64,000 bases of DNA from Calditrichota bacterium (GTDB taxonomy: Bacteria > Electryoneota > B3-LCP): contig JAGVQJ010000141.1 in assembly GCA_020051775.1 (NCBI GenBank), forward strand, positions 853-64,852, written 5' to 3'. A program made the translations under genes and the position numbers. The notes beneath the pieces were generated by a model, which saw only the letters and a program-made list of their open reading frames with translations, made no database searches and had not been told where the DNA came from. Every line of letters begins with the position of its first letter. Within the stretch, counting starts at the first letter, position 1. Shown piece by piece: positions 19,088-43,751 of this stretch.

Positions 19088-19735
19088 TCAAGCATTGCTT
19101 TTGCGGTTTCGAGCGCGGTTGATTTTTGGGATCAAAAACAGCCTGGTGAGCAACCCAACGCGCACTTGTTTCATCCGCAGAGTAATTTCCATGTTATCGG
19201 GATCCATCGTATAAGCGGCCAGAAGGCGACGCCGCGCGCGACTACGGTGACCGGCCTGATGATGCATCTCGCCTAAGATCATGTTCGCCTTGGCGCGATG
19301 CTGCCGAGAGTTAGAGCCTCCATGCGCTTCGGCGGCATAACGAAGCACCTCTACCGCCTCGTCATGACGACCCGCCGCCACTAACGCCTCGCCGTAACCA
19401 CAGTAATACTTGGCGTTGGTGTTCTCAAAATCGCAGGCTGCCTTGAGATGCCGGAGAGCTTTTTCCGCCCGATTGTTCTTCAGCAATGCCATGCCCAACT
19501 TGTACTTCTGATCCGCACGTTTCAAGAGGTCATCGGGGCGAATATCCAGTTGTGTACCGGTTTCCTCCTGACCCACCAGCAGTTCCAGTAAGGGCTCGAA
19601 GTAAGCTGGGTCTTCCTCCAGGGACTGGCGAAATTCCTGCTCTGCTTCCAGCAGTGATCCGCTGTTCTTTAGTTCCATGCCGCGCTGATAATGTTCGTCA
19701 GCATTAGCGCGGCGTTCAAAAATTGTTTCAGCCAT
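19088..19735 (-). CDS. Tetratricopeptide-repeat protein
   Basis: It has repeated TPR-like helices (YQRGMELKNSGSLLEAEQEFRQSLEEDP, KYKLGMALLKNNRAEKALRHLKAA, YGEALVAAGRHDEAVEVLRYA). Confidence 0.7.
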   Translation of the reverse strand: MAETIFERRANADEHYQRGMELKNSGSLLEAEQEFRQSLEEDPAYFEPLLELLVGQEETGTQLDIRPDDLLKRADQKYKLGMALLKNNRAEKALRHLKAACDFENTNAKYYCGYGEALVAAGRHDEAVEVLRYAAEAHGGSNSRQHRAKANMILGEMHHQAGHRSRARRRLLAAYTMDPDNMEITLRMKQVRVGLLTRLFLIPKINRARNRKSNA

Positions 19736-20123
19736 TTCTTCTAGGTCTCCGGAGCCAATTATTTAGTATTTCGTGTAGCCCCTGTGCAATTTAAATGCCG
19801 AAGTTACTTTATCGAAAAATAAATAATTTAAGTATATTATTATCAGATATTAAGATATTTTTCTCACAAACGACGCACGTGCTACTGGCTCTTTTTTTTG
19901 CCGCCGCGGGGTTGGATTTTCCGGGGAAAGCGGCGAAATGTAGCCACCCCATAGCCGGTTGAGGATAAGCCAGCCCGATGATACGGCTAACGATACCTGT
20001 GAACCGGGAATGATAATGGAGAATCAATCGCGAACGAACCGGAATGATAGAAGTCCGTAAAAACGATTGACTTTTTTTATTTCTGTTATTATCTTAATTA
20101 GTTCTGGGTTTTTGATTGTTGCA

Positions 20124-20207: not shown

Positions 20208-20280
20208 GGGGCTGTAGCTCAACTGGGAGAGCGATACGTTCGCAACGTATAGGTCGGCGGTTCGAGCCCGCTCAGCTCCA
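20208..20280 (+). tRNA. tRNA-Ala (anticodon CGC), CCA not encoded
   Basis: The sequence forms a manual cloverleaf: acceptor GGGGCTG/CAGCTCC with a G3:U70 pair, D-arm GCTC-AACTGGGA-GAGC, anticodon stem ATACG/CGTAT with loop TTCGCAA, T-arm GGCGG-TTCGAGC-CCGCT. Confidence 0.85.
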
Positions 20281-20381
20281 CAATCGGTACTTGCGAGTGA
20301 AGCGAAATAATCTGATCATTGGGTAGAGATTGCTTCGGAACTTTGTCCCTCGCAATGACACTTTCATGATTCATTGCAAGA

Positions 20382-22739: not shown

Positions 22740-22909
22740 GCAGATAGCCTCCCGACGCCCGCCCCTAAAGGAACGGGCTACGGCAAACACAAAGCCCTGT
22801 AAACAGGGCTCGACCGAAGAGAATAGCCCCCTTCAGGGGGGTTGAAATAGATGTAGCCCACTGCTTTAGCGGTGGGTGGACGCGAGTGGTATTATCCAGC
22901 GTTGTTAAC

Positions 22910-23509
22910 ATGACCTCCCTCCCTTCCACTTTGCAATCGCTTATTGACGAGCTGGCTCGCCTACCCGGCGTCGGCAAGAAGTCGGCGCAGCGCATGGCTC
23001 TCTATATATTGAAAGCTCCGCGCGAGAAAGCTCAGAATCTGGCTGATGCGGTCATGGGGGTGAAGGATCGCCTGTCTCTGTGCCGTACCTGTCATAACAT
23101 CGCAGAAGGAGAGCAATGCCCCATCTGCGCCGATCCCAAACGCGACGCGAGCATCATCTGTGTGGTGGAGCAGCCCGCTGACATCCTGACACTGGAAAAA
23201 TCCGGCGCGTTTCGAGGCTTGTATCATGTACTGGGCGGGGTCCTGTCGCCTTTAGATCATCAAAATAGCGGCGATCTGAACCTGAACGACCTGGTGCGGC
23301 GCGTGAAAGACGGCAACGTGCGAGAAGTTATTCTGGCCACGAACCCCACTACCGAAGGCGAAACTACAGCGCTCTTGGTGGCGCAGATGCTGAAGACTAC
23401 CGTCGTGAAGGTCACGCGCATTGCGCGCGGGGTGCCGGTGGGATCGGATCTTGAGTTCGCCGACGAGGCCACGCTGGCGAGAGCGCTAGAAGGGCGAGGG
23501 GAGTTGTAA
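22910..23509 (+). CDS. recR: Recombination protein RecR
   Basis: It has a helix-hairpin-helix (LPGVGKKSAQRMALY), a C4 zinc finger (CRTCHNIAEGEQCPICAD) and a Toprim domain. The internal ATG at 22910 is the likely start. Confidence 0.9.
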   Translation: MTSLPSTLQSLIDELARLPGVGKKSAQRMALYILKAPREKAQNLADAVMGVKDRLSLCRTCHNIAEGEQCPICADPKRDASIICVVEQPADILTLEKSGAFRGLYHVLGGVLSPLDHQNSGDLNLNDLVRRVKDGNVREVILATNPTTEGETTALLVAQMLKTTVVKVTRIARGVPVGSDLEFADEATLARALEGRGEL

Positions 23510-23521
23510 TCTCCGTCGTAA

Positions 23522-23547
23522 TGTCATTCCCGCGTAAACGGGAATCC
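23522..23547. repeat. REP-like palindromic element, copy E1, reverse orientation
   Basis: The sequence is TGTCATTCCCG-cgtaaa-CGGGAATCC. It is the reverse complement of the family consensus GGATTCCSGG...CCSGGAATGACA and lies 12 nt after the recR stop. Confidence 0.6.
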
Positions 23548-23587
23548 AGACGGTAGAGCGGCAGCTTGCTGCCGCCAGGATAACGAT

Positions 23588-24784
23588 ATGAATGGCTTTG
23601 ACAGAATTACCTTCGACCCAAACGTAATGGGCGGGCAAGCTTGTATACGGACGACGGGAATTCCAGTGTCGGCGATATTGAATTTGCTGGCGAATTGTAA
23701 AAATAAAGATGAGATACTAGCTGAGTATCCAGATCTCGAAATGGTAGATATTCAGCAGGCGTTGGGGTGGGCAGCGAGGGCCACTATTGACAAGCACCAA
23801 ATAGAAATGCGACTTAGCGCAGATTATTTGTTTCATTACACCAAACGACTTGATGTTATCAAAAATATCCTTAGAATTGGATTTCGATATTATCTCATTC
23901 AGGAAAAGATCCCTTACAAGGAAACCTATCAGGAAAATTTCGCAATATGTTTCTGTGATCTAAGAATCGAGGATACTGTTGTTCATAGAAAACGATATGG
24001 TAATAATTCTATAGTCCTATCGAAAGAATGGGGTATCAAAAATTGCATTCAACCAGTTAACTATATTCATGAAAACTCATCAGTGGTTTCAACCAAATAT
24101 ATCGCAATGCGAAGCAGATTCCGAGAGATTCACCAAAATCATCCACATAAAGATGATGTACTACAGGCAATGATGGATTATTTAATTTTCTCCAGGCTAC
24201 TAGATAAAGAGAAGTTAAATCATGAGATGATAAAAATTGACATTGATGAGAATCCGAATTTGCCAAATGAATTTGCAATTCATGAACAGGAATTCTTGGA
24301 ATTTATGGGGGATTTAGAAAGGATTAACCGAAAAGTTCTTTGCTGTGAATATATTTTTTCAATGTTTAAAAGAATCAATGACCTACATTTAGAGTTGGAA
24401 AAAAGGGATGCCTTTGCGAGAATATATTTTGACAATTATTCCCATAAAATTCTCTATGACGAGAGAGAGTGGCGAGCGATAAAATTCACGGATGATGCTT
24501 TCAACGTGGAAGAAAACGCGGCACGACAAATTACACTTTATGAGTATTTTAATACAAAAGCAGACGAAAACAAGGATATTGCGCCAACAACTAGAAATGA
24601 GCATTTACCTGATTCTGAAAATCTGATATTTTCCGATGACGATATCGTCGCCATCCTCGTCCAAGACGAAAAATCCGTAGATGAAATAAAGGAATTCCTC
24701 AGCAAACCAGAAAATCAGAAATTATTGAACTACGAAGCCGTTAAAGATAAAATTCGTTCGATGGATAGTTTTTCAGAAGGATAA
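23588..24784 (+). CDS. Hypothetical protein: N-terminal DUF433 (antitoxin-like) domain fused to a roughly 330-aa uncharacterised AT-rich domain
   Basis: The N-terminus (FDPNVMGGQACIRTTGIPVSAILNLLANCKNKDEILAEYPDLEMVDIQQALGWAA) matches the DUF433 consensus. The rest has no domain I recognise; it contains RFREIH (Rx4H). Its GC is visibly lower than the flanks. Confidence 0.7.
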   Translation: MNGFDRITFDPNVMGGQACIRTTGIPVSAILNLLANCKNKDEILAEYPDLEMVDIQQALGWAARATIDKHQIEMRLSADYLFHYTKRLDVIKNILRIGFRYYLIQEKIPYKETYQENFAICFCDLRIEDTVVHRKRYGNNSIVLSKEWGIKNCIQPVNYIHENSSVVSTKYIAMRSRFREIHQNHPHKDDVLQAMMDYLIFSRLLDKEKLNHEMIKIDIDENPNLPNEFAIHEQEFLEFMGDLERINRKVLCCEYIFSMFKRINDLHLELEKRDAFARIYFDNYSHKILYDEREWRAIKFTDDAFNVEENAARQITLYEYFNTKADENKDIAPTTRNEHLPDSENLIFSDDDIVAILVQDEKSVDEIKEFLSKPENQKLLNYEAVKDKIRSMDSFSEG

Positions 24785-24795
24785 ACACATTTTCT

Positions 24796-24930
24796 GGATT
24801 CCGGGTCAAACCCGGAATGACAAAGTGTCGGGGTCGGGGACGACCCCGACTACGGACGCGACGAAGCGCGTCCCTGCAGGATTCCCGCTTTCGCCCCGAA
24901 GGGGCGTCCCTTCGGGACGCGGGAATGACA
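24796..24930. repeat. Hairpin-dense block containing REP-like copies E2 and E3 plus two GC hairpins
   Basis: E2 at 24796-24822 is GGATTCCGGGT-caa-ACCCGGAATGACA. Two hairpins follow: GTCGGGGTCG-ggga-CGACCCCGAC and GGACGCG-acgaa-GCGCGTCC. E3 at 24879-24930 is GGATTCCCGC...GCGGGAATGACA with two nested hairpins. Confidence 0.65.
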
Positions 24931-25011
24931 CGACTGAATCCCGTATCCAGAATCCTGAATCCCATTATTCATAACCCGCTTATCACCCCCATACACATAA
25001 CTGAGGAACGC

Positions 25012-25593
25012 ATGAATACAGAAAAGCACATGCTGGAGATTCGCTGGCACGGGCGTGGAGGCCAGGGAGCGGTGACCGCTTCCAAAATGTTGGCCGAATC
25101 CGCCATGACGCTGGGGAAGTTCATCCAGGCTTTCCCTGAGTACGGCTCGGAGCGTCAGGGCGCTCCAGTTAAATCGTTCACCCGGATTTCCGACCAGAAA
25201 ATCAGGTATCATTCTCAGGTCAACACTCCGGATGTGGTGCTGGTCTTAGATCCCACGCTGCTGGGCGTAGTTGACGTTACTGAGGGCTTGGGAGAGGATG
25301 GCATCCTGATCATCAACACCCCGGCTCAGCCTGCTGAGATCCGCAAGCAGTTGAATCTGAAGGGTCGCAAGATCTTCACCGTAGACGCCACGGGGATCAG
25401 CCTGCGCCACCTGGGCAAATCCATTCCCAATACTCCCATGGTGGGAGCCATCGTGGGTATTACCAAAATGCTTTCAGCGCAAGCTGTGGCCGACGACTTC
25501 CGCGTCAAGTTCAAGGACAAGTTCCGGCCTGAGATCGTGGAAGGCAACGTCAAGTGCATCATGGACGCCACTACGGAGGTAAAATCAGAATGA
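25012..25593 (+). CDS. porG: 2-oxoacid (pyruvate/ketoisovalerate):ferredoxin oxidoreductase, gamma subunit
   Basis: Sequence LEIRWHGRGGQGAVTASKMLAESA. The ATG at 25012 is preceded by GAGGAA. The ORF-track 5' extension translates the hairpin region and is rejected. Confidence 0.85.
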   Translation: MNTEKHMLEIRWHGRGGQGAVTASKMLAESAMTLGKFIQAFPEYGSERQGAPVKSFTRISDQKIRYHSQVNTPDVVLVLDPTLLGVVDVTEGLGEDGILIINTPAQPAEIRKQLNLKGRKIFTVDATGISLRHLGKSIPNTPMVGAIVGITKMLSAQAVADDFRVKFKDKFRPEIVEGNVKCIMDATTEVKSE

Positions 25594-28105: not shown

Positions 28106-28744
28106 ATGACCGAATCCCAGCAAAAGGAAAGTTGGTTGAACCTACCCAACTTCCTGACCGTGTTGCGGTTTCTGTTCGTTCCCTTGATCTTGATGATACT
28201 CTATCGGCAAGGGATCATGTGGCAGATGCTGGGGACGGCTCTGTTCATCTTGGCGGCGTTGACGGATACGCTCGATGGGGCGATTGCCCGTCGGCGCCGC
28301 CAGATTACTGAGTTTGGCAAATTTGCCGATCCATTGGCCGATAAACTGCTCACCCTCTCCATCTTCACGGCCATCGCCTTGCGAAGCGAATTCGCTTCGG
28401 TATCGGTGTACCTTTTTATCTGGATTGCCATTATCGCCCTGCGCGAATTGGGAATCACGGTGATGCGGGTCTGGGCAATCAATCGGGGCACTCCCGTGAT
28501 AACCAGCTTCTGGGGCAAGGCCAAGACTACGATTCAATTGATCACCATCATCTCGACCCTGGCGCTGCTGAATTTCCGTGAAGTCGTCCAACACTGGAGT
28601 GCGGTGCGAGAATATTATCCTGGCGATCAATTCGTCGTGTACGTCGTACACACGCTGATCTTCCTGTGCATGCTTATAACGGTGATTTCCGGGATCTTAT
28701 ATTTTAACGAAAGCCGGTTGGAAAAAGCCGGGGAGACTGTTTGA
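28106..28744 (+). CDS. pgsA: CDP-diacylglycerol--glycerol-3-phosphate 3-phosphatidyltransferase (CDP-alcohol phosphatidyltransferase family)
   Basis: It has the CDP-OH_P_transf motif DTLDGAIARRRRQITEFGKFADPLADKLL and multiple TM helices. Confidence 0.8.
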   Translation: MTESQQKESWLNLPNFLTVLRFLFVPLILMILYRQGIMWQMLGTALFILAALTDTLDGAIARRRRQITEFGKFADPLADKLLTLSIFTAIALRSEFASVSVYLFIWIAIIALRELGITVMRVWAINRGTPVITSFWGKAKTTIQLITIISTLALLNFREVVQHWSAVREYYPGDQFVVYVVHTLIFLCMLITVISGILYFNESRLEKAGETV

Positions 28745-29184
28745 GATTTTTACTGAGGTTAGTCGGCAGTGGACTGGGTTCCGGTTATGCACCAGTCGCC
28801 TCAGGTACGGTGGGCAGCGCTATTGGGTTGTTGATTTGGATTCTGCTACCGTCTCTGACTGCGTATCAACAGATCGCGTTTGTAGGTGTCACTTTCCTGA
28901 TAGGCGTGCCCATCTGCACGCAGATGGAAAAGACCTACGGGTACGATCCATCACAAGCCACGTTCGATGAATTTGTAGGCCAGTGGACTGCACTGATTCT
29001 CCTGCCCAAAACACTGCCCTACCTGGCTGCCTCCTTTCTCATCTTCCGCGCTTTGGACGTATGGAAGCCGTTCCCGGCGCGAGGATCGCAAAAGCTGCCG
29101 GGCGGCTGGGGGATTATGATTGACGATTTGATCGTGGGAGTTTATACGTGTCTGTTGCTGCACGGGGTTAAGATGTTAATCTAA
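28741..29184 (+). CDS. pgpA: Phosphatidylglycerophosphatase A
   Basis: PgpA-family motifs (GLGSGYAPVASGTVGSAIG, FDEFVGQW). It has a 4-nt overlap with pgsA. Confidence 0.85.
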   Translation: MRFLLRLVGSGLGSGYAPVASGTVGSAIGLLIWILLPSLTAYQQIAFVGVTFLIGVPICTQMEKTYGYDPSQATFDEFVGQWTALILLPKTLPYLAASFLIFRALDVWKPFPARGSQKLPGGWGIMIDDLIVGVYTCLLLHGVKMLI

Positions 29185-29238: not shown

Positions 29239-29993
29239 TCTATCCATGTCATTCCGGCAAGGGTTTTCCCAGAGGGACTACATTGTGGTAGCCCGCGCTC
29301 CGGAAACAGACTACGGCTGTTTAATCCCCTTAGGGATCCGATTGAATCAAACCCAACCGCAGCTCCTGAAACCATGCCTTCAACCCCCACTAAGCTTCAA
29401 TAATTAACATTTTACCAGGTTACCCCCGAAGCCCAGGTCAAGGTTTTTTTACTCGCCACTGAGGAAGGTTCCACAAAGAATGGCATAAAAAGGAAAAATT
29501 TCTTAATAGAAATTATATCTATGATCGCGATCGCAAAGAATTCCATTTATATCATCTGCCAATATCGCGACTATTTCTATTTGTATGACATGTGAACATG
29601 ATAGCATGGTTAACTTCATTATTATCATTAATATGAAAGAGTTCATAAAAAATAGTTCAATCAATGCTTTCATTATGGGATCCAACTTAGTACATTGAAC
29701 GTAGAATCACAAGAGCAAGAGCAAGTGAATACGGTACAAGCATTTAAACTGATGACCGGGCTATTTGAGAACCTAGACCTTCCCCGGTCTTCTTTGGCCA
29801 CCTTAAGCCACAATGCAATTCAGAGCGAACTTCCTGAGCATGGAAACAGCGATTTGAAAGATCTATCTGGCCAATTCCCAATCCGTATGAATATCTAACC
29901 GAACACACTTCTAGTAGCTGACTTCCGATCGTCTTGATAACTGTCTAAAAACAGTAAGCCAAAGAACGATAGTTGAATTAAATCGGAGTCAGC

Positions 29994-31823
29994 ATGAGAA
30001 TCACATTGACATCCCTCCTCTGCGCTCTCCTGGTCTGGGCTATCCAGGCCGACGCGCGCAATCTCTACGTAGCGATAAACGGCAACAACAACAATCCGGG
30101 TACCATTACTCAGCCTTGGAGAACGATCGGCTATGCCGTCAGCAGTGCCAGCGGTGTCCACTCGGGCGATACCATCGTCGTCCGTCAGGGCAATTACCCC
30201 GAAGAAGTTTTTCCCGAGGTCAGCGGAACTGCCACTCAGCCGATCATCCTGCGCCGGCTGAAGAACGAAACGGTCTCTCTCGACCCAGGTAAAATCCGCT
30301 TCGAAAGCGGTGTCAACCACTGGAAAATCTACGGCATGGTGATCAAGCACTCCAGCTCCAGCGGACTGGAAATTAACGGTACCCATGCTGCCAATTTCCT
30401 GACTGTCTTGAAGTGCACCTTCTCGCACAATGAGCAGGATGGGATTTACCTGAGCGGCAGCTTCGGTGGCATTCAAATTCGCAGCTGCGACATCCAATTC
30501 AATGGAGAAGTGAACGGCGTACCGCAGAACGAAGAAGGTCACGGGATTGTGATTTACGGGAGTTCCGGCCAGCTCATCGTTAAAAACAGCCTGATCGCCA
30601 ACAACTGGCACAAGGGAATTGCCTACGGATCCGACGTGACTCAGTATGATGGAGACAATTCCCAGATTGATTCCAACATGATCATCAACAATTACGAATC
30701 CGGCCTGGACTTCTCCCCGGACAACTCCTTCGTGCGTCACAACTACATCTCGCGCAACGGACAGCGCGATATCGAATCAGGCGAATGGGGAGATAAAGGC
30801 GTTATGGCAAAAGGCATCTGCTCCCACACCACCTTTGCCTTCAACGTCATCAAGTCCAGCGGCGGCATGGAACTCGCGCCTTTGGGGGACCAGTGCTACT
30901 ACTACAACAACACGCTCTACAAGGACATCTTCTACACTGCCGTACCTGGATCGCCCTATCAGTCAACGATTATGTTCTACGACAGCTATGATCCCAGCAG
31001 CGTGTTCCGCAACAATATCATTTGCAACATGCTGAGCCAGGAAGATCACCACTGGGCGATCATCGCTGAAGTCTACCAAGCGTATACCAGCCAAACCTGG
31101 AGTAATAACTTGTACTGGGCGCCTAATTCCAGCCAGCAGTCCCCCGACAACAAACCTTTTAAATTGTATGGCGCCCCGGGTCCCGGTGGTAATATGAAAA
31201 CCCTGGCCGAAGTGCAGGCTACCTGGCCCAACGCAGAGAACAACAGCATTTATGTAAATCCGAGCTTCATTTCCTCGCCGGATTCCAACTTCCAACTGCT
31301 GCCCAACAGCCCTGCCATTGATGCTGGTTACAACGTGGGATTCCCCTACGTAGGCCAGGCCCCGGACATCGGAGCCTACGAATTCAGCACCAGATCTGCC
31401 AATGTCGGCCATCCTTATGGAGGCCTCTTTGAAAATAGCGGGGCGGTGTTGAGATTGAGTGGTGTCGGCGCGGACGAGATGGACCTGTCCGTTGATCCCG
31501 CCACGGATGAGTTGACTTTCGACGCCGATAATGGCTCCGTGCCAAGTGACGCTCTGCCGGGAATGGTTACCCTTGCGCAGAACAATCCCAATCCCTTCAA
31601 TCCGACCACCAGCATCATCTTCAACCTTCCCAATGATGGTATGGTGAAACTAACCGTTTACTCGATCACCGGCCAATTTGTCAAGACCTTGGTCAACAGC
31701 CATCAAACTGCCGGCGCACATGAGGTGACATTCGACGGTTCCAACCTGGCCTCTGGCGTCTACCTCTACCGTTTGGAAGCCGACGGCTTATCACAAACCC
31801 AGAAGATGATGCTGACCAAGTAG
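29994..31823 (+). CDS. Secreted beta-helix protein with T9SS-type C-terminal sorting domain; paralog of 11980-13809
   Basis: It shares about 85% protein identity with the inverted copy. It has a signal peptide (ALLVWAIQADA) and the tail NPFNPTTSIIFNLPNDGMVKLTVYSITGQFVKTL...GVYLYRLEADG...KMMLTK. Confidence 0.8.
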   Translation: MRITLTSLLCALLVWAIQADARNLYVAINGNNNNPGTITQPWRTIGYAVSSASGVHSGDTIVVRQGNYPEEVFPEVSGTATQPIILRRLKNETVSLDPGKIRFESGVNHWKIYGMVIKHSSSSGLEINGTHAANFLTVLKCTFSHNEQDGIYLSGSFGGIQIRSCDIQFNGEVNGVPQNEEGHGIVIYGSSGQLIVKNSLIANNWHKGIAYGSDVTQYDGDNSQIDSNMIINNYESGLDFSPDNSFVRHNYISRNGQRDIESGEWGDKGVMAKGICSHTTFAFNVIKSSGGMELAPLGDQCYYYNNTLYKDIFYTAVPGSPYQSTIMFYDSYDPSSVFRNNIICNMLSQEDHHWAIIAEVYQAYTSQTWSNNLYWAPNSSQQSPDNKPFKLYGAPGPGGNMKTLAEVQATWPNAENNSIYVNPSFISSPDSNFQLLPNSPAIDAGYNVGFPYVGQAPDIGAYEFSTRSANVGHPYGGLFENSGAVLRLSGVGADEMDLSVDPATDELTFDADNGSVPSDALPGMVTLAQNNPNPFNPTTSIIFNLPNDGMVKLTVYSITGQFVKTLVNSHQTAGAHEVTFDGSNLASGVYLYRLEADGLSQTQKMMLTK

Positions 31824-37548: not shown

Positions 37549-38886
37549 ATGAAAGCCTATTTGTTATTTATCGGAGTGATTGTTATGGCAACCACCGCCG
37601 TCAGCCAGGTGACCATCACCGTCTATAATCAGAACCTGGGATTGGTCAAGGAAACTCGCACCGTGGAAGTTAAAAAGGGCGCTTTCACCTACGAAGCCGC
37701 CGATGTGGCGGCTTTGATAGACCCCACTTCCGTGCATTTAAAATTGAACGGCGCGGCGGTATTCGAGCAGGATTTCGAGTACGATTTGGTATCCCGCGAC
37801 AGGTTGCTGGAACGCTACCTGGATCAAACCATTCAGGTTTTCACTGACAAGGGCGACATGTTCGAAGGCACGCTGCTGTCGGCCTCAAGTTCCGAACTGA
37901 TACTGCGCTCGGCGGAGGGCCGTGTGCAGGCCGTGGCGCCTACTTTTGTGCGCGACGTGCGTTTCGGCGACCTTCCGGGAGGACTGCGCACCCGTCCCAC
38001 TTTGGTTTGGTCGCTGTTCGGCGATAAAGCGGGAAAGCAGTCGGCGGAACTGAGCTATCTGACGAGCGGCATGAACTGGCACGCCGAATACGTGGCGATC
38101 ATCGCCGAAAAATCACCCAAGCTGGAATTGTCCTCGTGGGTGTCCATTGACAATCGCTGCGGGACTTCGTATGAGAACGCCAAGCTCAAGCTCATGGCAG
38201 GGGACGTGCAAATCGTTCAACCAGTTTATAGCGCTGACAGGCTAAGAAATGCACCTATGGCGGAGATGCAGCTTTCCACCGGCGCGCCTAAATTCGAGGA
38301 AAAGGCATTTTTCGAATATCACCTGTATACCCTCGACAGACCGGTCACGTTGAAAGACCGCCAGACCAAACAGATCAGCCTCTTTTCCCCGGCCACGGTA
38401 AATTCCCACCGCGAGTACGTTTACGACCCCACCCGCAACGCGGAGAAGGTCAGCGCCAAAGTGGTCTTCAAAAATGAGGAGAAAGAGGGACTGGGGATTC
38501 CGTTACCCTCCGGCAAGGTGCGGCTATACCAGCGCGATGACGACGGCGGTCTGGAGTTCGTGGGTGAAGACATGCTGGATCACACGCCTACAGCCAAAGA
38601 GGTGCGCCTGACTGCGGGTATGGCCTTCGATATCTCCGCCAAGTATGAGGTGACCGACCACCAGCGCATCTCTGATCGAATTTACGAGGAGTCTTTCAAA
38701 GTGACGTTGCATAACAGCAAGAAAGATGACGTGACGGTGATCGTCGTGGCCCGCCAGTATGGGGATTGGACTGTTTTGGAACCATCCCTGCCCTACGAGA
38801 AAAAAGACGCCTACACCATGGAATTCAAAGTATCGGTCCCGGCTGACAAGGAAATCGTCCTCACCTACCGTGTGCGCAGACAATAA
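37549..38886 (+). CDS. DUF4139 / DUF4140-family secreted protein (mucoidy-inhibitor MuiA-like)
   Basis: It has a signal peptide, and VTITVYNQNLGLVKETRTVEVKKGAFTYEAADVAALIDPTSVHL matches the family N-terminus. Confidence 0.75.
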   Translation: MKAYLLFIGVIVMATTAVSQVTITVYNQNLGLVKETRTVEVKKGAFTYEAADVAALIDPTSVHLKLNGAAVFEQDFEYDLVSRDRLLERYLDQTIQVFTDKGDMFEGTLLSASSSELILRSAEGRVQAVAPTFVRDVRFGDLPGGLRTRPTLVWSLFGDKAGKQSAELSYLTSGMNWHAEYVAIIAEKSPKLELSSWVSIDNRCGTSYENAKLKLMAGDVQIVQPVYSADRLRNAPMAEMQLSTGAPKFEEKAFFEYHLYTLDRPVTLKDRQTKQISLFSPATVNSHREYVYDPTRNAEKVSAKVVFKNEEKEGLGIPLPSGKVRLYQRDDDGGLEFVGEDMLDHTPTAKEVRLTAGMAFDISAKYEVTDHQRISDRIYEESFKVTLHNSKKDDVTVIVVARQYGDWTVLEPSLPYEKKDAYTMEFKVSVPADKEIVLTYRVRRQ

Positions 38887-38947
38887 GACTGTACCGCAAT
38901 CCCAAGCACCGCCGCCTCGAAAAGAAATCTACGCCCCCAAGGGAGCC

Positions 38948-41035
38948 TTGGAGACCCAGGCGCAGTACATCCCCGGAGTGGGGCCGCGCCGCGCCCGCGA
39001 ACTGGAGAAGGTCGGCGTCTTCACTCTGGAAGGTCTGCTTTACTACCTGCCTCGGCGTTATCTGGATCGTTCGTTGGTCGTGCCCATCGCCGACCTCGAA
39101 CTGACCGAACGCGAAGTAACAGTGGTGGGGAAGGTGACCAGTTTCCAGGTCATCGGTGGAGGACCCAACAGCCGCCGGTTCGAATTGAATGTTTCCGATG
39201 GGACCGGCGTCTTGTGCGCGGTCTGGTTCGGCGGTGTGCCCTTCTGGAGCAAGGCGTTTGAGCGCGGACAGACGGTGGCTTTCAGCGGCAAAGTTCGCTT
39301 GTTTCGAGACAGGGTGCAGATGACGCACCCGGCCGTGGATTTCCTGACGGAGGACGAACGCCGCGATCTTAAAGGCAAAACCGGCCGCATCATCTCGCTG
39401 TATTCTTCCGGCGATCCTTTAACGCGTGTAGGCTTGGATAGCGCCGGGTTCCGCCGGCTGATCGCTGATTCCATCCTGCTGGCCAAGGGGAAGATTCCGG
39501 AAACACTCCCTCCGGAATTGATCCGTAAACACGACCTCGTCAGGCGCGAACAAGCGCTGTTCCAGGTGCATTTCCCGGAAGACTTCGATCAAGTCGCCAA
39601 GGCGCTGCGGCGGTTGAAGTTCGAGGAGATCTTTCTCCTACAACTCTCTCTGGCGCTGCGCGAACATCGGCGCAAGACCCGCGACAAGGGAATCGCCTTT
39701 CCTCACCCCGGGACGTTGACACGGCAGGCTTTAAAGCAGTTCCCCTTCGAACTGACTAAGGGGCAGCTTCAGGTCTTGACCGATATTCGGCAGGATATGG
39801 AAGCCGAATATCCCATGAACCGGTTACTGCAAGGGGACGTGGGTGCAGGCAAAACCGCCGTAGTGATGATCGCTCTGGCGATAGCCGTGGAAGGCGGCTA
39901 CCAGGGCGCCGTCATGGCGCCGACGGAAGTCCTGGCGGAGCAGCACTTCCGCACCATGGAGACGTTCTTTGACAAGTTAGGCATACGCACGACACTCCTG
40001 TTGGGAGGGTTGACGGCCGCCGTGCGCCGTTCCCGCCTGGAGGAGATTGCTTCCGGGAAAGCTCAGGTGGTCATCGGCACACATGCCTTGATCCAGGAGG
40101 GCGTTGAATTCCACAAGCTGGGTTTGGTGGTCATTGACGAGCAGCACCGTTTTGGAGTAGCGCAGAGGCTGGGATTGCGCCGCAAGGGCAAAACTCCCGA
40201 CGTGCTGGTGCTGACCGCCACGCCCATCCCCCGATCGCTGGCGCTGACCATGTACGGCGATCTGGACGTTTCACTGTTAAAAGAACGACCGCACAACCGC
40301 AAACCGATCCAGACCAAAATCTATGGCGGTAAAAGGCGCGAGGAGCTCTTTGAAAAAATCCGACTGGAAATGAGCAAGGGGCGGCAGGCGTTCATCGTCT
40401 ACCCGTTGGTGGAAGAATCGGAGAAATTGGACTTGCAGGCGGCGGTGAAAGCTCACGGCGAACTGAGTGCCGGGCCGTTTAAGAATTTCAAGTTGGGATT
40501 GCTGCACGGGCGCATGACCACCGAAGAAAAAGACCGGGTGATGAAGGCCTTCATCGCGCACGAGTATGATCTGCTGGTATCCACGACGGTCATCGAACTG
40601 GGTATTGACGTGCCCAACGCCACGGTGATGGCGGTCATGGGAGCGCAACGCTTCGGGCTGTCAGCGCTGCACCAACTGCGGGGCCGAGTGGGGCGCGGCG
40701 AACATCGCGGCGTCTGCGTCCTGGTGGTGGACCCGCCCATGACCAATGAAGCTCGCGACCGCCTGTCCGTGCTGGAACGCACCGAAGACGGCTTCATCAT
40801 CGCGGATGAGGATCTGCGCATTCGCGGCGGCGGGGAATTCTTCGGCACGCGGCAGTCCGGCGCGCCGGACTTCAAGATCGCCGATCCGGTGGAAGACCGC
40901 GAACTCTTAGAGGTCGCCCGATTCGAGGCCTTTGCCTGGGTCGCCCACGACCCGGATCTAAAAGCCTATCTGCCTCTGCAAGCCTTCTTCGAGCGAGCCT
41001 ATGGGCCGAAGATGGAGCTGATGGACGTGGGGTGA
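38948..41035 (+). CDS. recG: ATP-dependent DNA helicase RecG
   Basis: It has a wedge/OB N-terminus (LPRRYLDRS), helicase motifs (GDVGAGKTAV, VVIDEQHRFGV, LTATPIPRSL, LHGRM, QLRGRVGRG) and a RecG C-terminus. There is no in-frame ATG downstream of the preceding gene's stop. The start is provisionally the TTG at 38948; the ORF-track start at 38759 would overlap the previous gene by 128 nt. Confidence 0.85.
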   Translation: METQAQYIPGVGPRRARELEKVGVFTLEGLLYYLPRRYLDRSLVVPIADLELTEREVTVVGKVTSFQVIGGGPNSRRFELNVSDGTGVLCAVWFGGVPFWSKAFERGQTVAFSGKVRLFRDRVQMTHPAVDFLTEDERRDLKGKTGRIISLYSSGDPLTRVGLDSAGFRRLIADSILLAKGKIPETLPPELIRKHDLVRREQALFQVHFPEDFDQVAKALRRLKFEEIFLLQLSLALREHRRKTRDKGIAFPHPGTLTRQALKQFPFELTKGQLQVLTDIRQDMEAEYPMNRLLQGDVGAGKTAVVMIALAIAVEGGYQGAVMAPTEVLAEQHFRTMETFFDKLGIRTTLLLGGLTAAVRRSRLEEIASGKAQVVIGTHALIQEGVEFHKLGLVVIDEQHRFGVAQRLGLRRKGKTPDVLVLTATPIPRSLALTMYGDLDVSLLKERPHNRKPIQTKIYGGKRREELFEKIRLEMSKGRQAFIVYPLVEESEKLDLQAAVKAHGELSAGPFKNFKLGLLHGRMTTEEKDRVMKAFIAHEYDLLVSTTVIELGIDVPNATVMAVMGAQRFGLSALHQLRGRVGRGEHRGVCVLVVDPPMTNEARDRLSVLERTEDGFIIADEDLRIRGGGEFFGTRQSGAPDFKIADPVEDRELLEVARFEAFAWVAHDPDLKAYLPLQAFFERAYGPKMELMDVG

Positions 41036-41041
41036 AAGAAG

Positions 41042-41069
41042 TTATGAATTATGAGTTATGAGTTATGAA
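41042..41069. repeat. Left copy of a perfect 28-bp terminal inverted repeat (TTATGAATTATGAGTTATGAGTTATGAA)
   Basis: It is exactly the reverse complement of 42953-42980. It consists of four tandem heptamers, TTATGAA/TTATGAG, and starts 6 bp after the recG stop. Confidence 0.9.
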
Positions 41070-41346
41070 AACAATTGTCATCGCTGCACTATTCGGCACG
41101 TAGGGGTCGGGTTTGCCCCGAACCATTGATCCCCCCCTTCCCCCCTTGACAAGGGGGGTGACTGCAGGGTGAGGAAATCGTTGGATTACGCTTCGCTAAT
41201 CCAACCTACTTTACTGAATCACGCAGATTTCACTGATTACGCTGATTATTTACTCTTGTCTGAATCACAGATTCACGCAGATTAAGCAGATTGCGCGGAT
41301 TTTCATCTCCGAAGGGGATGAAAATCGAGCGCTACCGGCACGGATT

Positions 41347-42450
41347 GTGGGACAATTGAATTCAATCAATAGAATGAAGGAGAAGAAGATGCCAACTCCG
41401 CAAGAAAAGCAAATTCTAATCAATATTCAGAAAGATCTCGAGACTCTCGCATTGTATGACGATGGAAAAATGACTCGAAAGGATTTGGCACCTGAGTTAG
41501 AATTTTCATATGTTTCAATTTATATCCAACGATCCTTGGCAATATACAGAAAATTAAAAGATGCACCTCTTGAGTGCTTAGTTGAACAATCATTAAAGCA
41601 AGTTCAACAAAGAGTAGCTCAAGCGGCTGGTAGATATAAGGAGCTAGCAGAGTTTTCAATCGCTAAATATCCCGACAATGTAATGCAAAAGAGAAATAAC
41701 ATAATTCAAGCAATTGTGTCTGAATATTTTGAAGACATAAAGATTCTGCAACCTATAATTGATCTTCTTGTACCAATTGATTCCGAAATAATCAAAATCA
41801 CTAAGGAACAAAAAAAATCTTTGAAATCAATTGAAACAGAGAGATTAAATATTAAGAGTAAATCAGAAGAATTACAGAAAGAAATTGAATTGACTCTGAG
41901 TAACCTACAAAAGGAGAGTAACGAAGCATTGATGGCGGTACGCAGTATTGCTGGTGAGGCTGGAGTTTCTCACCATGCACAAATTTTTGCTCAACAAGCG
42001 AATCAGCATAAAAAGTACGCAAATATTTGGTTGAGTATTTCAGTGGCGGTACTTGTCCTTGCCGTATTTGCAATATCTTGGATTACGAAAACATACATAG
42101 AGGAAATAAAAGATCTAGATGAAATAATTAAGGTACTTCCAATCACAATATCTAGATTAGTCATGGTGACGATTTCTCTATATGCAGTATTGTGGAGCAC
42201 AAAGAATTATAATGCGCATCGACACAATGAAGTGATTAATCGCCATAGGCAAAATGCCTTAAGTACGTTTAAATCATTCGTAGAGGCGGCGAAAGATGAC
42301 CCAGCAACAAAGAATACAATTTTAATACAAGCTACTCAGTGTATTTTTTCTGTGCAAAGGTGTGGTTATTTAAAAGGCGATAGTGATTCAATGATGCCAA
42401 ATAATCTAATTAATATTCCATTGCCTGCATCTCCAAAATTAAAAGACTAA
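41347..42450 (+). CDS. Hypothetical protein: long coiled-coil N-terminal region followed by a two-TM helical hairpin and a short C-terminal domain (SLATT-like architecture)
   Basis: The ORF is AT-rich. Residues 1 to about 215 are K/E/Q-rich helical. The TM helices are IWLSISVAVLVLAVFAISWI and LVMVTISLYAVLWSTKNY. The C-terminus NAHRHNEVINRHRQNALSTFKSFVEAAKDD matches no known family that I recognise. Confidence 0.6.
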   Translation: MGQLNSINRMKEKKMPTPQEKQILINIQKDLETLALYDDGKMTRKDLAPELEFSYVSIYIQRSLAIYRKLKDAPLECLVEQSLKQVQQRVAQAAGRYKELAEFSIAKYPDNVMQKRNNIIQAIVSEYFEDIKILQPIIDLLVPIDSEIIKITKEQKKSLKSIETERLNIKSKSEELQKEIELTLSNLQKESNEALMAVRSIAGEAGVSHHAQIFAQQANQHKKYANIWLSISVAVLVLAVFAISWITKTYIEEIKDLDEIIKVLPITISRLVMVTISLYAVLWSTKNYNAHRHNEVINRHRQNALSTFKSFVEAAKDDPATKNTILIQATQCIFSVQRCGYLKGDSDSMMPNNLINIPLPASPKLKD

Positions 42451-42511
42451 ATACTGTGATTTTTCTTGTCTTTCAATCCGTCTCCGCGGTCGTGCAGGTT
42501 GGCGGGGATCT

Positions 42512-42536
42512 CATTCCGGGGGTTTGATACCCCCGG
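42512..42536. repeat. REP-like palindromic element copy E5
   Basis: CATTCCGGGGG-tttgata-CCCCCGG is followed by CCATTC. Confidence 0.5.
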
Positions 42537-42600
42537 CCATTCAAGCTCATCCACTGCGGGGTTGATGAAGCGTCCACTTTAGTGGACTGAAAGAAGGTAG

Positions 42601-42620
42601 CCCGGGAATTCATTCCCGGG
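42601..42620. repeat. REP-like palindromic element copy E6
   Basis: CCCGGGAAT-tc-ATTCCCGGG is a 9-bp palindrome sharing the GGAAT/ATTCC core. Confidence 0.5.
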
Positions 42621-42642
42621 ATTCGGTTGCGGTCATATTCCC

Positions 42643-42858
42643 ATGCAAGTCTTCAAAACTTTTCTCATCCTCGGGAGCGTGTTCGGCGCCATCGGCGCGG
42701 CGATGGCGTATGTCATCATGTATCATGAGTATCTGGATCATTATCCGGACAAAAAGCAACCGCGCAAGATTGCCTTGGAGGCGGCGATCATCACCTTCTT
42801 GATCTTCTTTGGTTTGTCCGCCGGGTTTGGATATTTCCTGGCGCGGCTGCAAGGATAG
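42643..42858 (+). CDS. Small hypothetical membrane protein (two TM helices, 71 aa)
   Basis: The helices are FLILGSVFGAIGAAMAYVIM and AAIITFLIFFGLSAGFGYFLA. Its codon usage is GC-rich, unlike the neighbouring AT-rich gene. There is no obvious RBS. Confidence 0.4.
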   Translation: MQVFKTFLILGSVFGAIGAAMAYVIMYHEYLDHYPDKKQPRKIALEAAIITFLIFFGLSAGFGYFLARLQG

Positions 42859-42952
42859 GAAGTGAAATTTAATTGGAACATGCGGCAAGCAGTGACGCTT
42901 GCTCTACTAAATTGGGTCGGGGCATGCCCGAACCCTACGAGATGTTTTTTGA

Positions 42953-42980
42953 TTCATAACTCATAACTCATAATTCATAA
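42953..42980. repeat. Right copy of the perfect 28-bp terminal inverted repeat
   Basis: TTCATAACTCATAACTCATAATTCATAA is the reverse complement of 41042-41069. It ends 6 bp before the parA start codon. Confidence 0.9.
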
Positions 42981-42986
42981 TTCCTA

Positions 42987-43751
42987 ATGTCTCGCATCAT
43001 CGCCATAGCCAACCAAAAGGGCGGGGTGGGCAAAACCACCACGGCCGTCAACCTGGCCTGCTTTTTAGCCGCCGCCGAGAAGAAGACTCTGCTGGTGGAT
43101 ATTGACCCGCAGGCCAACGCCACTTCCGGCATGGGTTTAGGCTCGGAGAAACGCGGCAAGACCATCTATGAGGTGCTGATCCAGGAGATGGACCCGCGTG
43201 AAGCCGTCCAGGACACCGATCTGGAATTCCTGAAGATCCTGCCGTCCGACGTCAAGTTGGTGGGCGCGGAGATCGAACTGGTGCCCATGATGAGCCGCGA
43301 GCAGATCTTGCGGCGCGCTCTGACGCCCCTGAAAGCGGAATACGATTACCTGATCATGGACTGCCCGCCGTCTTTGGGGCTGTTGACTCTGAACGCTCTG
43401 ACCTCCGCCGATTCCGTGTTGATCCCCATCCAGTGCGAATACTACGCGCTGGAAGGCATCACCCAGCTTCTGGGCACAGTGCGACTCGTGCAGAAGCATT
43501 TAAACAACGCCCTGGAGATTGAGGGCGTCCTGCTAACCATGTACGACAACCGTCTGAAACTATCCAAACAGGTGCGGACGGATGTGCAGGAATTTTTCCG
43601 CGAAAAAGTCTTTCGCAGCGTCATCACCCGCAACGTCAAACTTTCGGAGGCGCCGTCCTTCGGTCAACCCATCATCTTTTACGATATTGCCTCGCGCGGG
43701 GCGCAAAATTATCTTTCTTTGGCGCAGGAGATCATCAACAATGAACGGTAA
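42987..43751 (+). CDS. parA: Chromosome partitioning ATPase ParA/Soj
   Basis: It has the deviant Walker [22 protein letters not shown] and ParA motifs ([17 protein letters not shown]). Confidence 0.9.

Follow-up and report, generated by a model that had tools for sequence, protein, structure and literature searches.

What kind of protein is encoded by the conspicuously AT-rich gene that lies between recR and porG in a Calditrichota bacterium, and how did the gene come to hold this place? The gene (positions 23588-24784, forward strand) is part of a stretch of 64,000 nucleotides (assembly GCA_020051775.1, contig JAGVQJ010000141.1, positions 853 to 64,852), here called the window. It is a complete open reading frame (ORF) with an ATG start in the six-frame ORF list and encodes 398 amino acids (aa), in which Pfam and PADLOC recognize a DUF433 domain followed by a long-form AbiGi-family domain. 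A first-pass annotation, made from the sequence alone, had described the protein as DUF433 fused to a domain that could not be placed, and had proposed a horizontally acquired single-chain toxin-antitoxin (TA) or abortive-infection candidate. The reading favored here, in which we place about even confidence, is that of a defence-type single-gene effector resembling ADP-ribosyltransferases (ARTs), with a fold like that of DarT and DUF2971, a DNA-binding DUF433 domain and a variable helical insert.

The C-terminal domain is readily placed. It matches the Pfam family AbiGi (PF10899) with an E-value of 5.9e-14 (52.9 bits vs a cut-off of 22.4) and the PADLOC model AbiGi (PDLC02331) with an E-value of 2.4e-21, and is by these profile matches a long-form member of the AbiGi family. 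The score for the NCBIfam equivalog of lactococcal AbiGI (NF042957), 32.9 bits, is far under the cut-off of 300. HEPN, PIN/Mut7-C and Abi_2 had been put forward as candidate families for this domain, and none of them matched at E-values up to 1 in Pfam, PADLOC or NCBIfam. A first database search yielded 129 relatives, 120 of them listed; all but one carry PF10899, the exception (P0059) having matched via DUF433 only. About 40 relatives of approximately 300-320 aa form a long subfamily, whose alignment spans the C-terminal domain from end to end, and classical AbiGi proteins (approximately 250 aa) align mostly to the core at aa 75-170.

Motif conservation was derived from an alignment of 67 sequences, all of which match AbiGi and which share a mean column identity of 21%. 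Invariant in this alignment are F122, C123, D124, K146, W148, Y159 and the stretch Y290-D-E-R-E-W-R296. The N-terminal half of the AbiGi/ART-like core (aa 75-165; 23810..24082, forward strand like all parts of the gene) was delimited by its invariant and near-invariant columns and by hhalign and hmmsearch alignments to DarT; it contains the motifs LFHYT (81-85), CFCD (121-124), H133, K146-x-W148-G149 and Y159. YDEREWR (aa 290-296; 24455..24475), to which the first-pass annotation had already drawn attention, reads as a motif of the ExE type, placed where a beta-strand begins, and, being invariant in 67 of 67 sequences, is a signature of the family. So strict a set of charged and aromatic residues at so low a mean identity suggests an enzyme over a passive binder.

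The AlphaFold2 model of the protein has a mean predicted local distance difference test score (pLDDT) of 86 and a predicted template modelling score (pTM) of 0.78. Its alpha/beta core consists of strands at residues 77-85, 102-107, 114-125, 140-145 and 158-160, followed by helices 169-274, a helix at 289-292 and the strand that carries the E-x-E motif (294-299). A poorly modelled loop (301-340) leads to a small, conserved alpha/beta module at the C-terminus (aa 341-398; 24608..24781; NLxFSDDDIVAILV...), a stretch with many invariant DNA columns in comparison with the orthologue L119. The helices 169-274, together with low identity between orthologues, define a hypervariable, all-helical insert (aa 166-275; 24083..24412). 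The motif RFREIH (aa 177-182; 24116-24133), previously noted for its HEPN-like Rx4H spacing, is present, and lies inside this insert; the equivalent residues are RWREIR in L088 and L177, FKDAII in L001, FDDLIE in L002 and YSGLMG in L119. Because the motif, including its His, is not conserved and sits in the variable insert, and with no match to a HEPN family, the HEPN reading was rejected.

The closest candidate relatives of known structure are DarT proteins. DarT is the single-stranded DNA thymidine/guanosine ADP-ribosyltransferase of the DarTG system and belongs to a toxin family linked to defence and TA systems. When the family profile was run against all PDB sequences (hmmsearch), the first match was Escherichia coli DarT1 (8baq; E-value 0.25) over LFHYT..L..IL..G, and the best match of the model other than DUF433 in a Foldseek search of the PDB was Thermus DarT (7omv; E-value 0.54). 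With hhalign, the family profile aligned to a profile of eight plasmid-borne DarT domains, collected by tblastn against plasmids, with a probability of 67-69%, a P-value of 4.5e-5 and a score of 40.7 over approximately 30 columns at the LFHYT..IL..G motif. Eighty column shuffles and one reversal served as controls; these 81 runs gave a mean score of 14.1 (sd 2.9) and a maximum of 23.7. A fold search of BFVD delivered nothing significant, with DarT and Tpt1 appearing only at E-values above 2. By profile and fold searches DarT thus weakly stands out as the best solved relative of the C-terminal domain. A survey of ARTs places AbiGi among the known ART-like families and reports significant similarity of DUF2971 to AbiGi and DarT (10.1101/2024.07.30.605764). 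According to this survey, the His of motif I is weakly conserved in the DUF2971/AbiGi type, motif II carries a Tyr, motif III is ExE, and there are large inserts of helices (10.1101/2024.07.30.605764). The mention of DUF2971 in the first-pass annotation therefore pointed in the right direction, even with a Pfam match to DUF2971 absent. None of the 67 sequences departs from E292-R-E294 or Y159, and the acidic motif stands at the start of a strand in the model; these residues would represent the corresponding ART motifs. The best reading of AbiGi, from profile, motif and fold comparisons, is a divergent ADP-ribosyltransferase fold with DarT and DUF2971 as relatives, and not an antitoxin.

Several observations weigh against this assignment. 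The Pfam models of DarT and DUF2971 match none of the 67 family members, and the matches to ARTs fall short of conventional significance, with Foldseek E-values of 0.5 or worse and an hhalign probability of 67-69% that covers approximately 30 columns. The motif-I His varies, some members having LYTYT. No ADP-ribosylhydrolase of the DarG or NADAR type is found near the window gene, whose flanks are recR and porG. Its constant place upstream of porGDAB, in the same orientation, may indicate a functional link to the por operon. To our knowledge, phage defence has been demonstrated only for the two-gene lactococcal AbiG system, never for a solo AbiGi. According to a 2026 review, lactococcal AbiGi has no significant match in the PDB and the mechanism of AbiG is unknown (PMC13064643); the same review names a phage major tail protein as the activator of the AbiG system (PMC13064643).

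The name antitoxin, which the databases attach to AbiGi, rests on an analogy to AbiE and on misannotation, without experimental support. In the hands of Dy et al., abiGi and abiGii were both non-toxic in E. coli (PMC3985639), and the same authors recognized the streptococcal "AbiG" genes as misannotated AbiE (PMC3985639).

The neighbourhoods of relatives provide further evidence on the function of the long subfamily. When the 146 ORFs that neighbour the gene at 40 loci were compared all against all, the flanks of the porG locus set aside, no conserved partner gene emerged; the recurrences were type III mod/res genes (two loci) and type IIG restriction-modification (R-M) genes (two loci). AbiGii was not seen at any inspected locus, even next to a classical AbiGi of 251 aa, and it is neither adjacent to the window gene nor present beside the gene in L001, L002, L003, L088, L089 and L177. 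At locus L085 (3414-10247) a stand-alone long-form AbiGi has the Mod gene of a type III R-M system on one side and its Res gene on the other; DUF6998 and a nuclease of the OLD family (AAA + TOPRIM) come next, with an adjoining integrase. The homologue at L114 is flanked by the same Mod-like and Res-like neighbours, and the arrangement of these two loci could represent a three-gene R-M variant. A long-form AbiGi at L103 (4444-9028) adjoins a restriction endonuclease of the DpnII/MboI type and a Piwi-domain (prokaryotic Argonaute-like) protein, and homologues at L100 and L115 adjoin Eco57I/MmeI-type R-M enzymes. Other neighbours of homologues are GmrSD (L090), a PD-(D/E)XK nuclease (L123), a UvrD helicase (L095) and IS110 (L096). 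Relatives of the short type occur on 18 IMG/VR contigs and in phrog_13416. Since this partner-less subfamily of approximately 310 aa is set in R-M and defence islands and has invariant, catalytic-looking motifs, the case can be made that proteins of the AbiGi type act as effectors, probably ART-like enzymes, and not as antitoxins.

The N-terminal part of approximately 70 aa was correctly recognized as DUF433 (COG2442), a domain of the antitoxin type with a predicted three-helix DNA-binding fold. PF04255 matches aa 7-60 (23606..23767) over profile positions 1-54 of 56 with an E-value of 2.8e-18 (65.9 bits vs a cut-off of 23.6). The DUF433 structure 2ga1, a three-helix bundle of the DNA/RNA-binding kind, is the top Foldseek match of the model in the PDB (prob 0.99, 31-33% identity), a match that is weak in E-value (0.24-0.36) and has a target-normalised TM of 0.47, model residues 1-20 being of low confidence. 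With many DUF433 proteins that stand alone (71-163 aa), the domain shares 50-67% identity. For DUF433/COG2442, a role as DNA-binding antitoxin and autorepressor of PIN toxins has been predicted (PMC2701414); Makarova et al. reported in 2009 that its neighbour association is with PIN only, and that its fusions are to winged helix-turn-helix (wHTH) domains only (PMC2701414). The fusion with AbiGi was sought in two protein collections from approximately 15 billion predicted proteins and in one scan of metagenome contigs. It was found only at this locus and in this lineage, in four distinct versions among the collections searched, whose DUF433 parts are 54-64% identical.

The position between recR and porG is conserved in a patchy manner. 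Among named genomes, the closest RecR (78% identity) belongs to a metagenome-assembled genome (MAG) of Candidatus Zixiibacteriota (L004), and that of an unclassified MAG from an uncultured bacterium (L005) is equally close; both have an intact por operon without the fusion gene. The first-pass annotation had raised the question whether recR is the direct neighbour of porG in relatives, and in L005 the two genes are indeed separated by a 98-nt spacer without hairpins. In L004 the spacer consists of 670 nt of non-coding DNA rich in repetitive extragenic palindromic (REP) elements, in which AbiGi remnants were looked for and none were found. Orthologues are present at this locus in five further Zixibacteria-like genomes, in which RecR is 76-81% identical in pairwise comparison and PorG 74-85%. 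Every orthologue directly precedes porG, and on contigs that include the upstream flank it lies downstream of recR, so that, the window included, the gene is directly upstream of and co-oriented with porG in all six genomes that carry it.

The spacer also holds further mobile cargo in L002/L089 and in L177. L001 has the full fusion (37% identity to the window protein) in the order fusion, porG. L002, L003 and L089 share a full fusion of 398 aa (42%) in the order recR, HicB-like gene, N6/N4 methyltransferase gene, 208-aa ORF, fusion, porG. In L177 recR is followed by an 82-aa ORF and parE, a putative TA pair, then by a fusion listed as a pseudogene (55-56%) and porG. L088 carries an intact AbiGi alone (313 aa, 53%), 30 nt after recR and followed by porG, and in L119, where the N-terminus is cut by the end of the contig, AbiGi (37% identity over the 263 aa on the contig) again precedes porG. 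The public gene call for L002 (P0003) begins 43 codons late at an internal TTG; the frame is open as far as the ATG of position L002:2623, and the half of DUF433 that the call misses is encoded at L002 2623-2751, and likewise at L003 327-455. Late-start gene calls of this kind can hide fusions from protein databases. The gene of L177 (1036-2166) has an in-frame TAG at the codon of the invariant Trp-148 (KEWG to KT*G) and is for this reason called as two fragments; the interruption is either a pseudogene mutation or a sequencing error. The start of this fusion overlaps the stop of the upstream parE toxin gene. Within the por operon of the same lineage, after porA, a minimal nucleotidyltransferase and HEPN TA pair was observed (L003 3859-4553; L089 9056-9792). 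In this lineage, modules of the TA type are scattered through the housekeeping region.

Conservation along the protein is a mosaic, measured as mean pairwise identity among the six orthologues of the locus. It amounts to 0.59 for DUF433 (1-70), 0.57 for the N-terminal part of the core (75-165), 0.29 for the helical insert (166-275), 0.52 for the C-terminal part of the core (276-300), 0.19 for the loop (301-340) and 0.53 for the C-terminal module (341-398), beside 74-85% identity in the flanking RecR and PorG. The fusion gene has a GC content of 0.365 (0.358 at third codon positions, GC3), compared to 0.570 in dnaX, 0.569 in ybaB, 0.579 in recR, 0.556 in porG and 0.582 in porA, which agrees with the AT shift relative to recR and porG that had been noted. 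Along the gene, GC drops to 0.31-0.39, vs 0.55-0.60 on both sides, with 0.47 in the first 70 codons (the DUF433 part) and 0.34 in the remainder. All orthologues are AT-rich (0.34-0.39 vs approximately 0.57-0.62 in the flanks), and long-form genes are AT-richer than their flanks at 19 of 22 loci, by 6% on average. Low GC is thus a trait of the family and not in itself evidence of recent transfer.

These data sustain one part of the earlier proposal of a horizontally acquired insertion, namely that an accessory, AT-rich candidate from an abortive-infection family is situated between recR and porG. They do not sustain a recent, one-off insertion, which is unlikely, since orthologues hold the same slot in five genomes with RecR and PorG 74-85% identical; the position of the fusion is conserved across the lineage, at a GC content that is not host-like. 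The comparison suggests a fast-evolving accessory gene that has long resided in a variable spacer, which also gathers TA and R-M cargo; the gene appears to have been lost on occasion (L004, L005), to have lost a domain (L088) or to have become a pseudogene (L177).

The spacer of the window also contains several hairpins. The inverted bracketing by REP-like elements that had been described is correct: E1 (GTCATTCC-CGCGTAAACG-GGAATCCAG; 23523..23549, forward strand) lies upstream of the gene, and E2 (24794..24821, reverse strand), which begins 10 nt after the stop codon, and E3 (24879..24929, reverse strand), a long form with the same GGATTCCCGC...GCGGGAATGAC ends, lie downstream in the opposite orientation. 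The arms TGTCATTCCCGCGT / ACGCGGGAATGACA are 14 nt long and 100% complementary, and E1, E2 and E3 all fold stably (z -2.4 to -4.6). They are the only hairpins in the 64 kb with GTCATTCC/GGAATGAC ends, a fourth regular-expression match at 39494 being without those ends; the 12-mer core is not rare by chance, as 9 of 100 shuffled sequences contained it two or more times at up to one mismatch. E2 is identical over 26 nt at the same place, 3' of the gene, in L119, and L001, L002, L088 and L177 have the gene without these hairpins. Two GC-rich hairpins without assigned strand accompany these elements. The first, GCGGCAGC-TT-GCTGCCGC (23558..23575), recurs downstream of the orthologue in L002 (3827) and L089, and the second, GTCGGGGTCG-GGGA-CGACCCCGAC (24827..24850), has a related copy upstream of the fusion in L001 (position 6). 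Since they recur on different sides of the gene in different genomes, the two GC-rich families suggest lineage-wide intergenic elements of the REP type rather than cassette ends.

Under the favored reading of an ART-like effector, the enzyme would be kept inactive or at low expression until the variable helical insert, the likely specificity or sensor surface, reads an infection cue. NAD+ would then be used to ADP-ribosylate a nucleic acid or a protein, with LFHYT on the first beta-strand as a putative NAD-site-like motif, together with the conserved Tyr and the invariant E-x-E of YDEREWR, and this modification would halt the growth of the phage or of the cell. DUF433 may provide DNA binding, either for autorepression or for tethering the enzyme to DNA. 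A nucleic-acid target is tentatively favored because of the frequent R-M neighbours and the fusion to a DNA-binding domain. A bolder version, to which we assign a rather low probability, holds that long-form AbiGi proteins are self-contained, single-gene immune enzymes that ADP-ribosylate nucleic acids without a cognate hydrolase, with the insert as phage sensor and, in this Zixibacteria lineage, a captured, antitoxin-derived DUF433 as tether or autoregulator. If true, it would overturn the database label of AbiGi as an antitoxin and give a first mechanistic handle on the 30-year-old AbiG. AbiG was described in 1996.

Alternative explanations of the fusion take DUF433 or AbiGi as the antitoxin. 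The single-chain TA idea of the first-pass annotation, with an AbiGi-like toxin held by DUF433 as cis-antitoxin and autorepressor and set free by cleavage or unfolding of the latter, agrees with the predicted role of DUF433/COG2442 as DNA-binding antitoxin of PIN toxins (PMC2701414), with the recurrence of the fusion in four genomes, and with L177, where the fusion overlaps parE and has a nonsense codon at W148, as might befall a costly toxin. It is weakened by the closest homologue, L088 (53% identity), which is intact without DUF433, and by the approximately 40 long-form relatives that stand alone with no conserved neighbour, and these show that the AbiGi-like domain is tolerated without DUF433; lactococcal AbiGi, moreover, is not toxic in E. 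coli (PMC3985639). We consider this explanation unlikely. Slightly less probable still is an orphan antitoxin or regulator, in which a non-enzymatic AbiGi with a DNA-binding domain would act as an anti-addiction or transcription factor versus AbiGii-like or PIN toxins. Pfam and NCBI names do read 'AbiGi, antitoxin', both domains come from families called antitoxins, and no toxin gene is adjacent; the label, however, derives from the AbiE analogy and misannotation (PMC3985639), the strictly invariant set of charged and aromatic motifs is atypical of antitoxins, and most family members inspected have no AbiGii nearby.

Two further explanations start from the location of the gene. A lineage-specific regulator of porGDAB could bind the por promoter region through DUF433 or ADP-ribosylate POR, comparable to the action of DraT on nitrogenase, and would account for the position directly upstream of porG in the same orientation in 6 of 6 genomes, and for the E2 hairpin between gene and porG that is identical in two genomes. 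That the por operon is intact in two related genomes from which the gene is absent, and that a third genome carries the gene as a pseudogene (L177), argues against such a role, as do the family members in R-M or defence islands elsewhere that have no por genes, the strongly non-host composition, and the TA and R-M cargo gathered in the same spacer; we regard it as improbable. The least probable explanation is a recently inserted, small mobile element cargo bounded by inverted REP-like hairpins, such as a miniature inverted-repeat transposable element (MITE)-like cassette or one mobilised by a REP-associated tyrosine transposase (RAYT). The inversion of E1 relative to E2 and E3, their fully complementary 14-nt arms, their uniqueness in the 64 kb and the AT-rich composition are what such a cassette would display, but it was rejected because four orthologous loci (L001, L002, L088 and L177) have the gene without the hairpins. 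No transposase or RAYT gene occurs in the window or the inspected loci, no target-site duplication was seen, REP debris is present in the spacer of the empty-site relative L004, the frequency of the 12-mer core in shuffles is not exceptional, and the position is conserved across genomes that are approximately 22% diverged in RecR.

The genes around the spacer are those expected from the earlier description of a dnaX-ybaB-recR / por neighbourhood, as Pfam identifies DnaX, YbaB, RecR and POR-gamma. The left edge of the spacer is formed by recR (22886..23509, forward strand; RecR_HhH, Toprim_4 and RecR_C) and the right edge by porG (25012..25593, forward strand; POR gamma subunit, PF01558, E-value 5.4e-42). 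The start of porG at the ATG of position 25012 agrees with the PorG starts of relatives (four compared, including L001, L002 and L088); the mechanical ORF from 24817 would add 65 residues of translated REP-like hairpins (24817-25011). The fusion gene itself is preceded by AGGA, a Shine-Dalgarno-like motif read from the sequence 7 nt before the ATG (23577..23580, forward strand). A scan for sigma-70 promoters and terminators gave counts close to the expectation from shuffled sequence, the sole terminator-like match being on the minus strand.

Other features of the window were noted in passing. The window has a single tRNA gene, for tRNA-Ala(CGC) (20208-20281), which shortly precedes dnaX and adjoins a region of low GC (0.40-0.42) at 19650-20100. 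A second AT-rich island (41000-43000; GC 0.40-0.43 vs approximately 0.58 nearby) has a recG-like helicase gene (38759-41035) on its left and a parA-like gene (42987-43751) on its right, and contains an ORF of 367 aa (41347-42450, forward strand) with an apparent hydrophobic, possibly membrane-spanning segment, whose sole match is a sub-threshold one to DUF6161 (21.5 bits vs a cut-off of 27), with none in PHROG; GC-rich palindromes occur near this ORF at approximately 42550 and 42640. A short AT-rich stretch (29400-29900; GC 0.33-0.38) without a convincing ORF separates an ORF of 147 aa (28741-29184) from a large gene for a secreted protein (29994-31823).

As the AbiGi domain is recognized by standard HMMs and both domains belong to known families, the locus does not represent a categorically new system. 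The joining of DUF433 to AbiGi, the long AbiGi subfamily that occurs without a partner in R-M and defence islands, and the conserved residence between recR and porG in Zixibacteria appear to be undescribed in the literature searched. The locus would be a small chromosomal hotspot between two housekeeping operons, in which a fast-evolving, AT-rich, defence-type gene is kept, lost or pseudogenised, and the rare fusion to DUF433 hints at a link to DNA. The main use of the analysis lies in the evidence that it adds on AbiGi-type proteins as effectors, and in a tractable candidate for biochemistry. Should activity be confirmed, the protein would count as a new immune enzyme that modifies DNA or protein; otherwise it would be a correctly annotated, ordinary accessory gene.

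Compared to known systems, the N-terminal domain is a bona fide DUF433 like that of the DUF433/COG2442-PIN (COG4634/Mut7-C) pairs, but it is covalently fused to an unrelated, enzyme-like domain instead of being free-standing, and its neighbours in the window are recR and porG, with no adjacent PIN gene. With AbiEi-type type IV antitoxins the protein shares an N-terminal DNA-binding domain (wHTH in AbiEi) in front of a larger C-terminal domain, and a family name of the Abi series; a sequence relationship was not found, and whereas AbiEi neutralises the adjacent nucleotidyltransferase toxin AbiEii, the window gene has no such partner. DUF2971 (PF11185) resembles the C-terminal domain in its published description, in which the His of motif I is poorly conserved, a Tyr is conserved, motif III is ExE and large helical inserts interrupt the core, although neither the window protein nor its 66 relatives match the Pfam model. 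DarT differs in that R51 and H119 cannot be mapped onto the window domain, in the absence of the large helical insert, in a similarity that is not conventionally significant, and in the DarG or NADAR hydrolase partner that the window gene lacks; common to both are the beta1-alpha1 motif 'hHFT..NL..IL..G' and an acidic motif, catalytic in DarT, at the start of a late beta-strand. Relative to lactococcal AbiGi (PF10899), the window domain is longer (approximately 325 vs 250 aa), with a helical insert of 110 aa and an extra C-terminal module, and its gene is fused to DUF433, has no AbiGii partner and is chromosomal in a Zixibacteria-like genome. Lactococcal AbiGi nevertheless remains the system with the significant HMM match and the common motifs LFHYT, CFCD, KxWG and YDEREWR, from a family that is tied to phage defence and has relatives on (pro)phage contigs.

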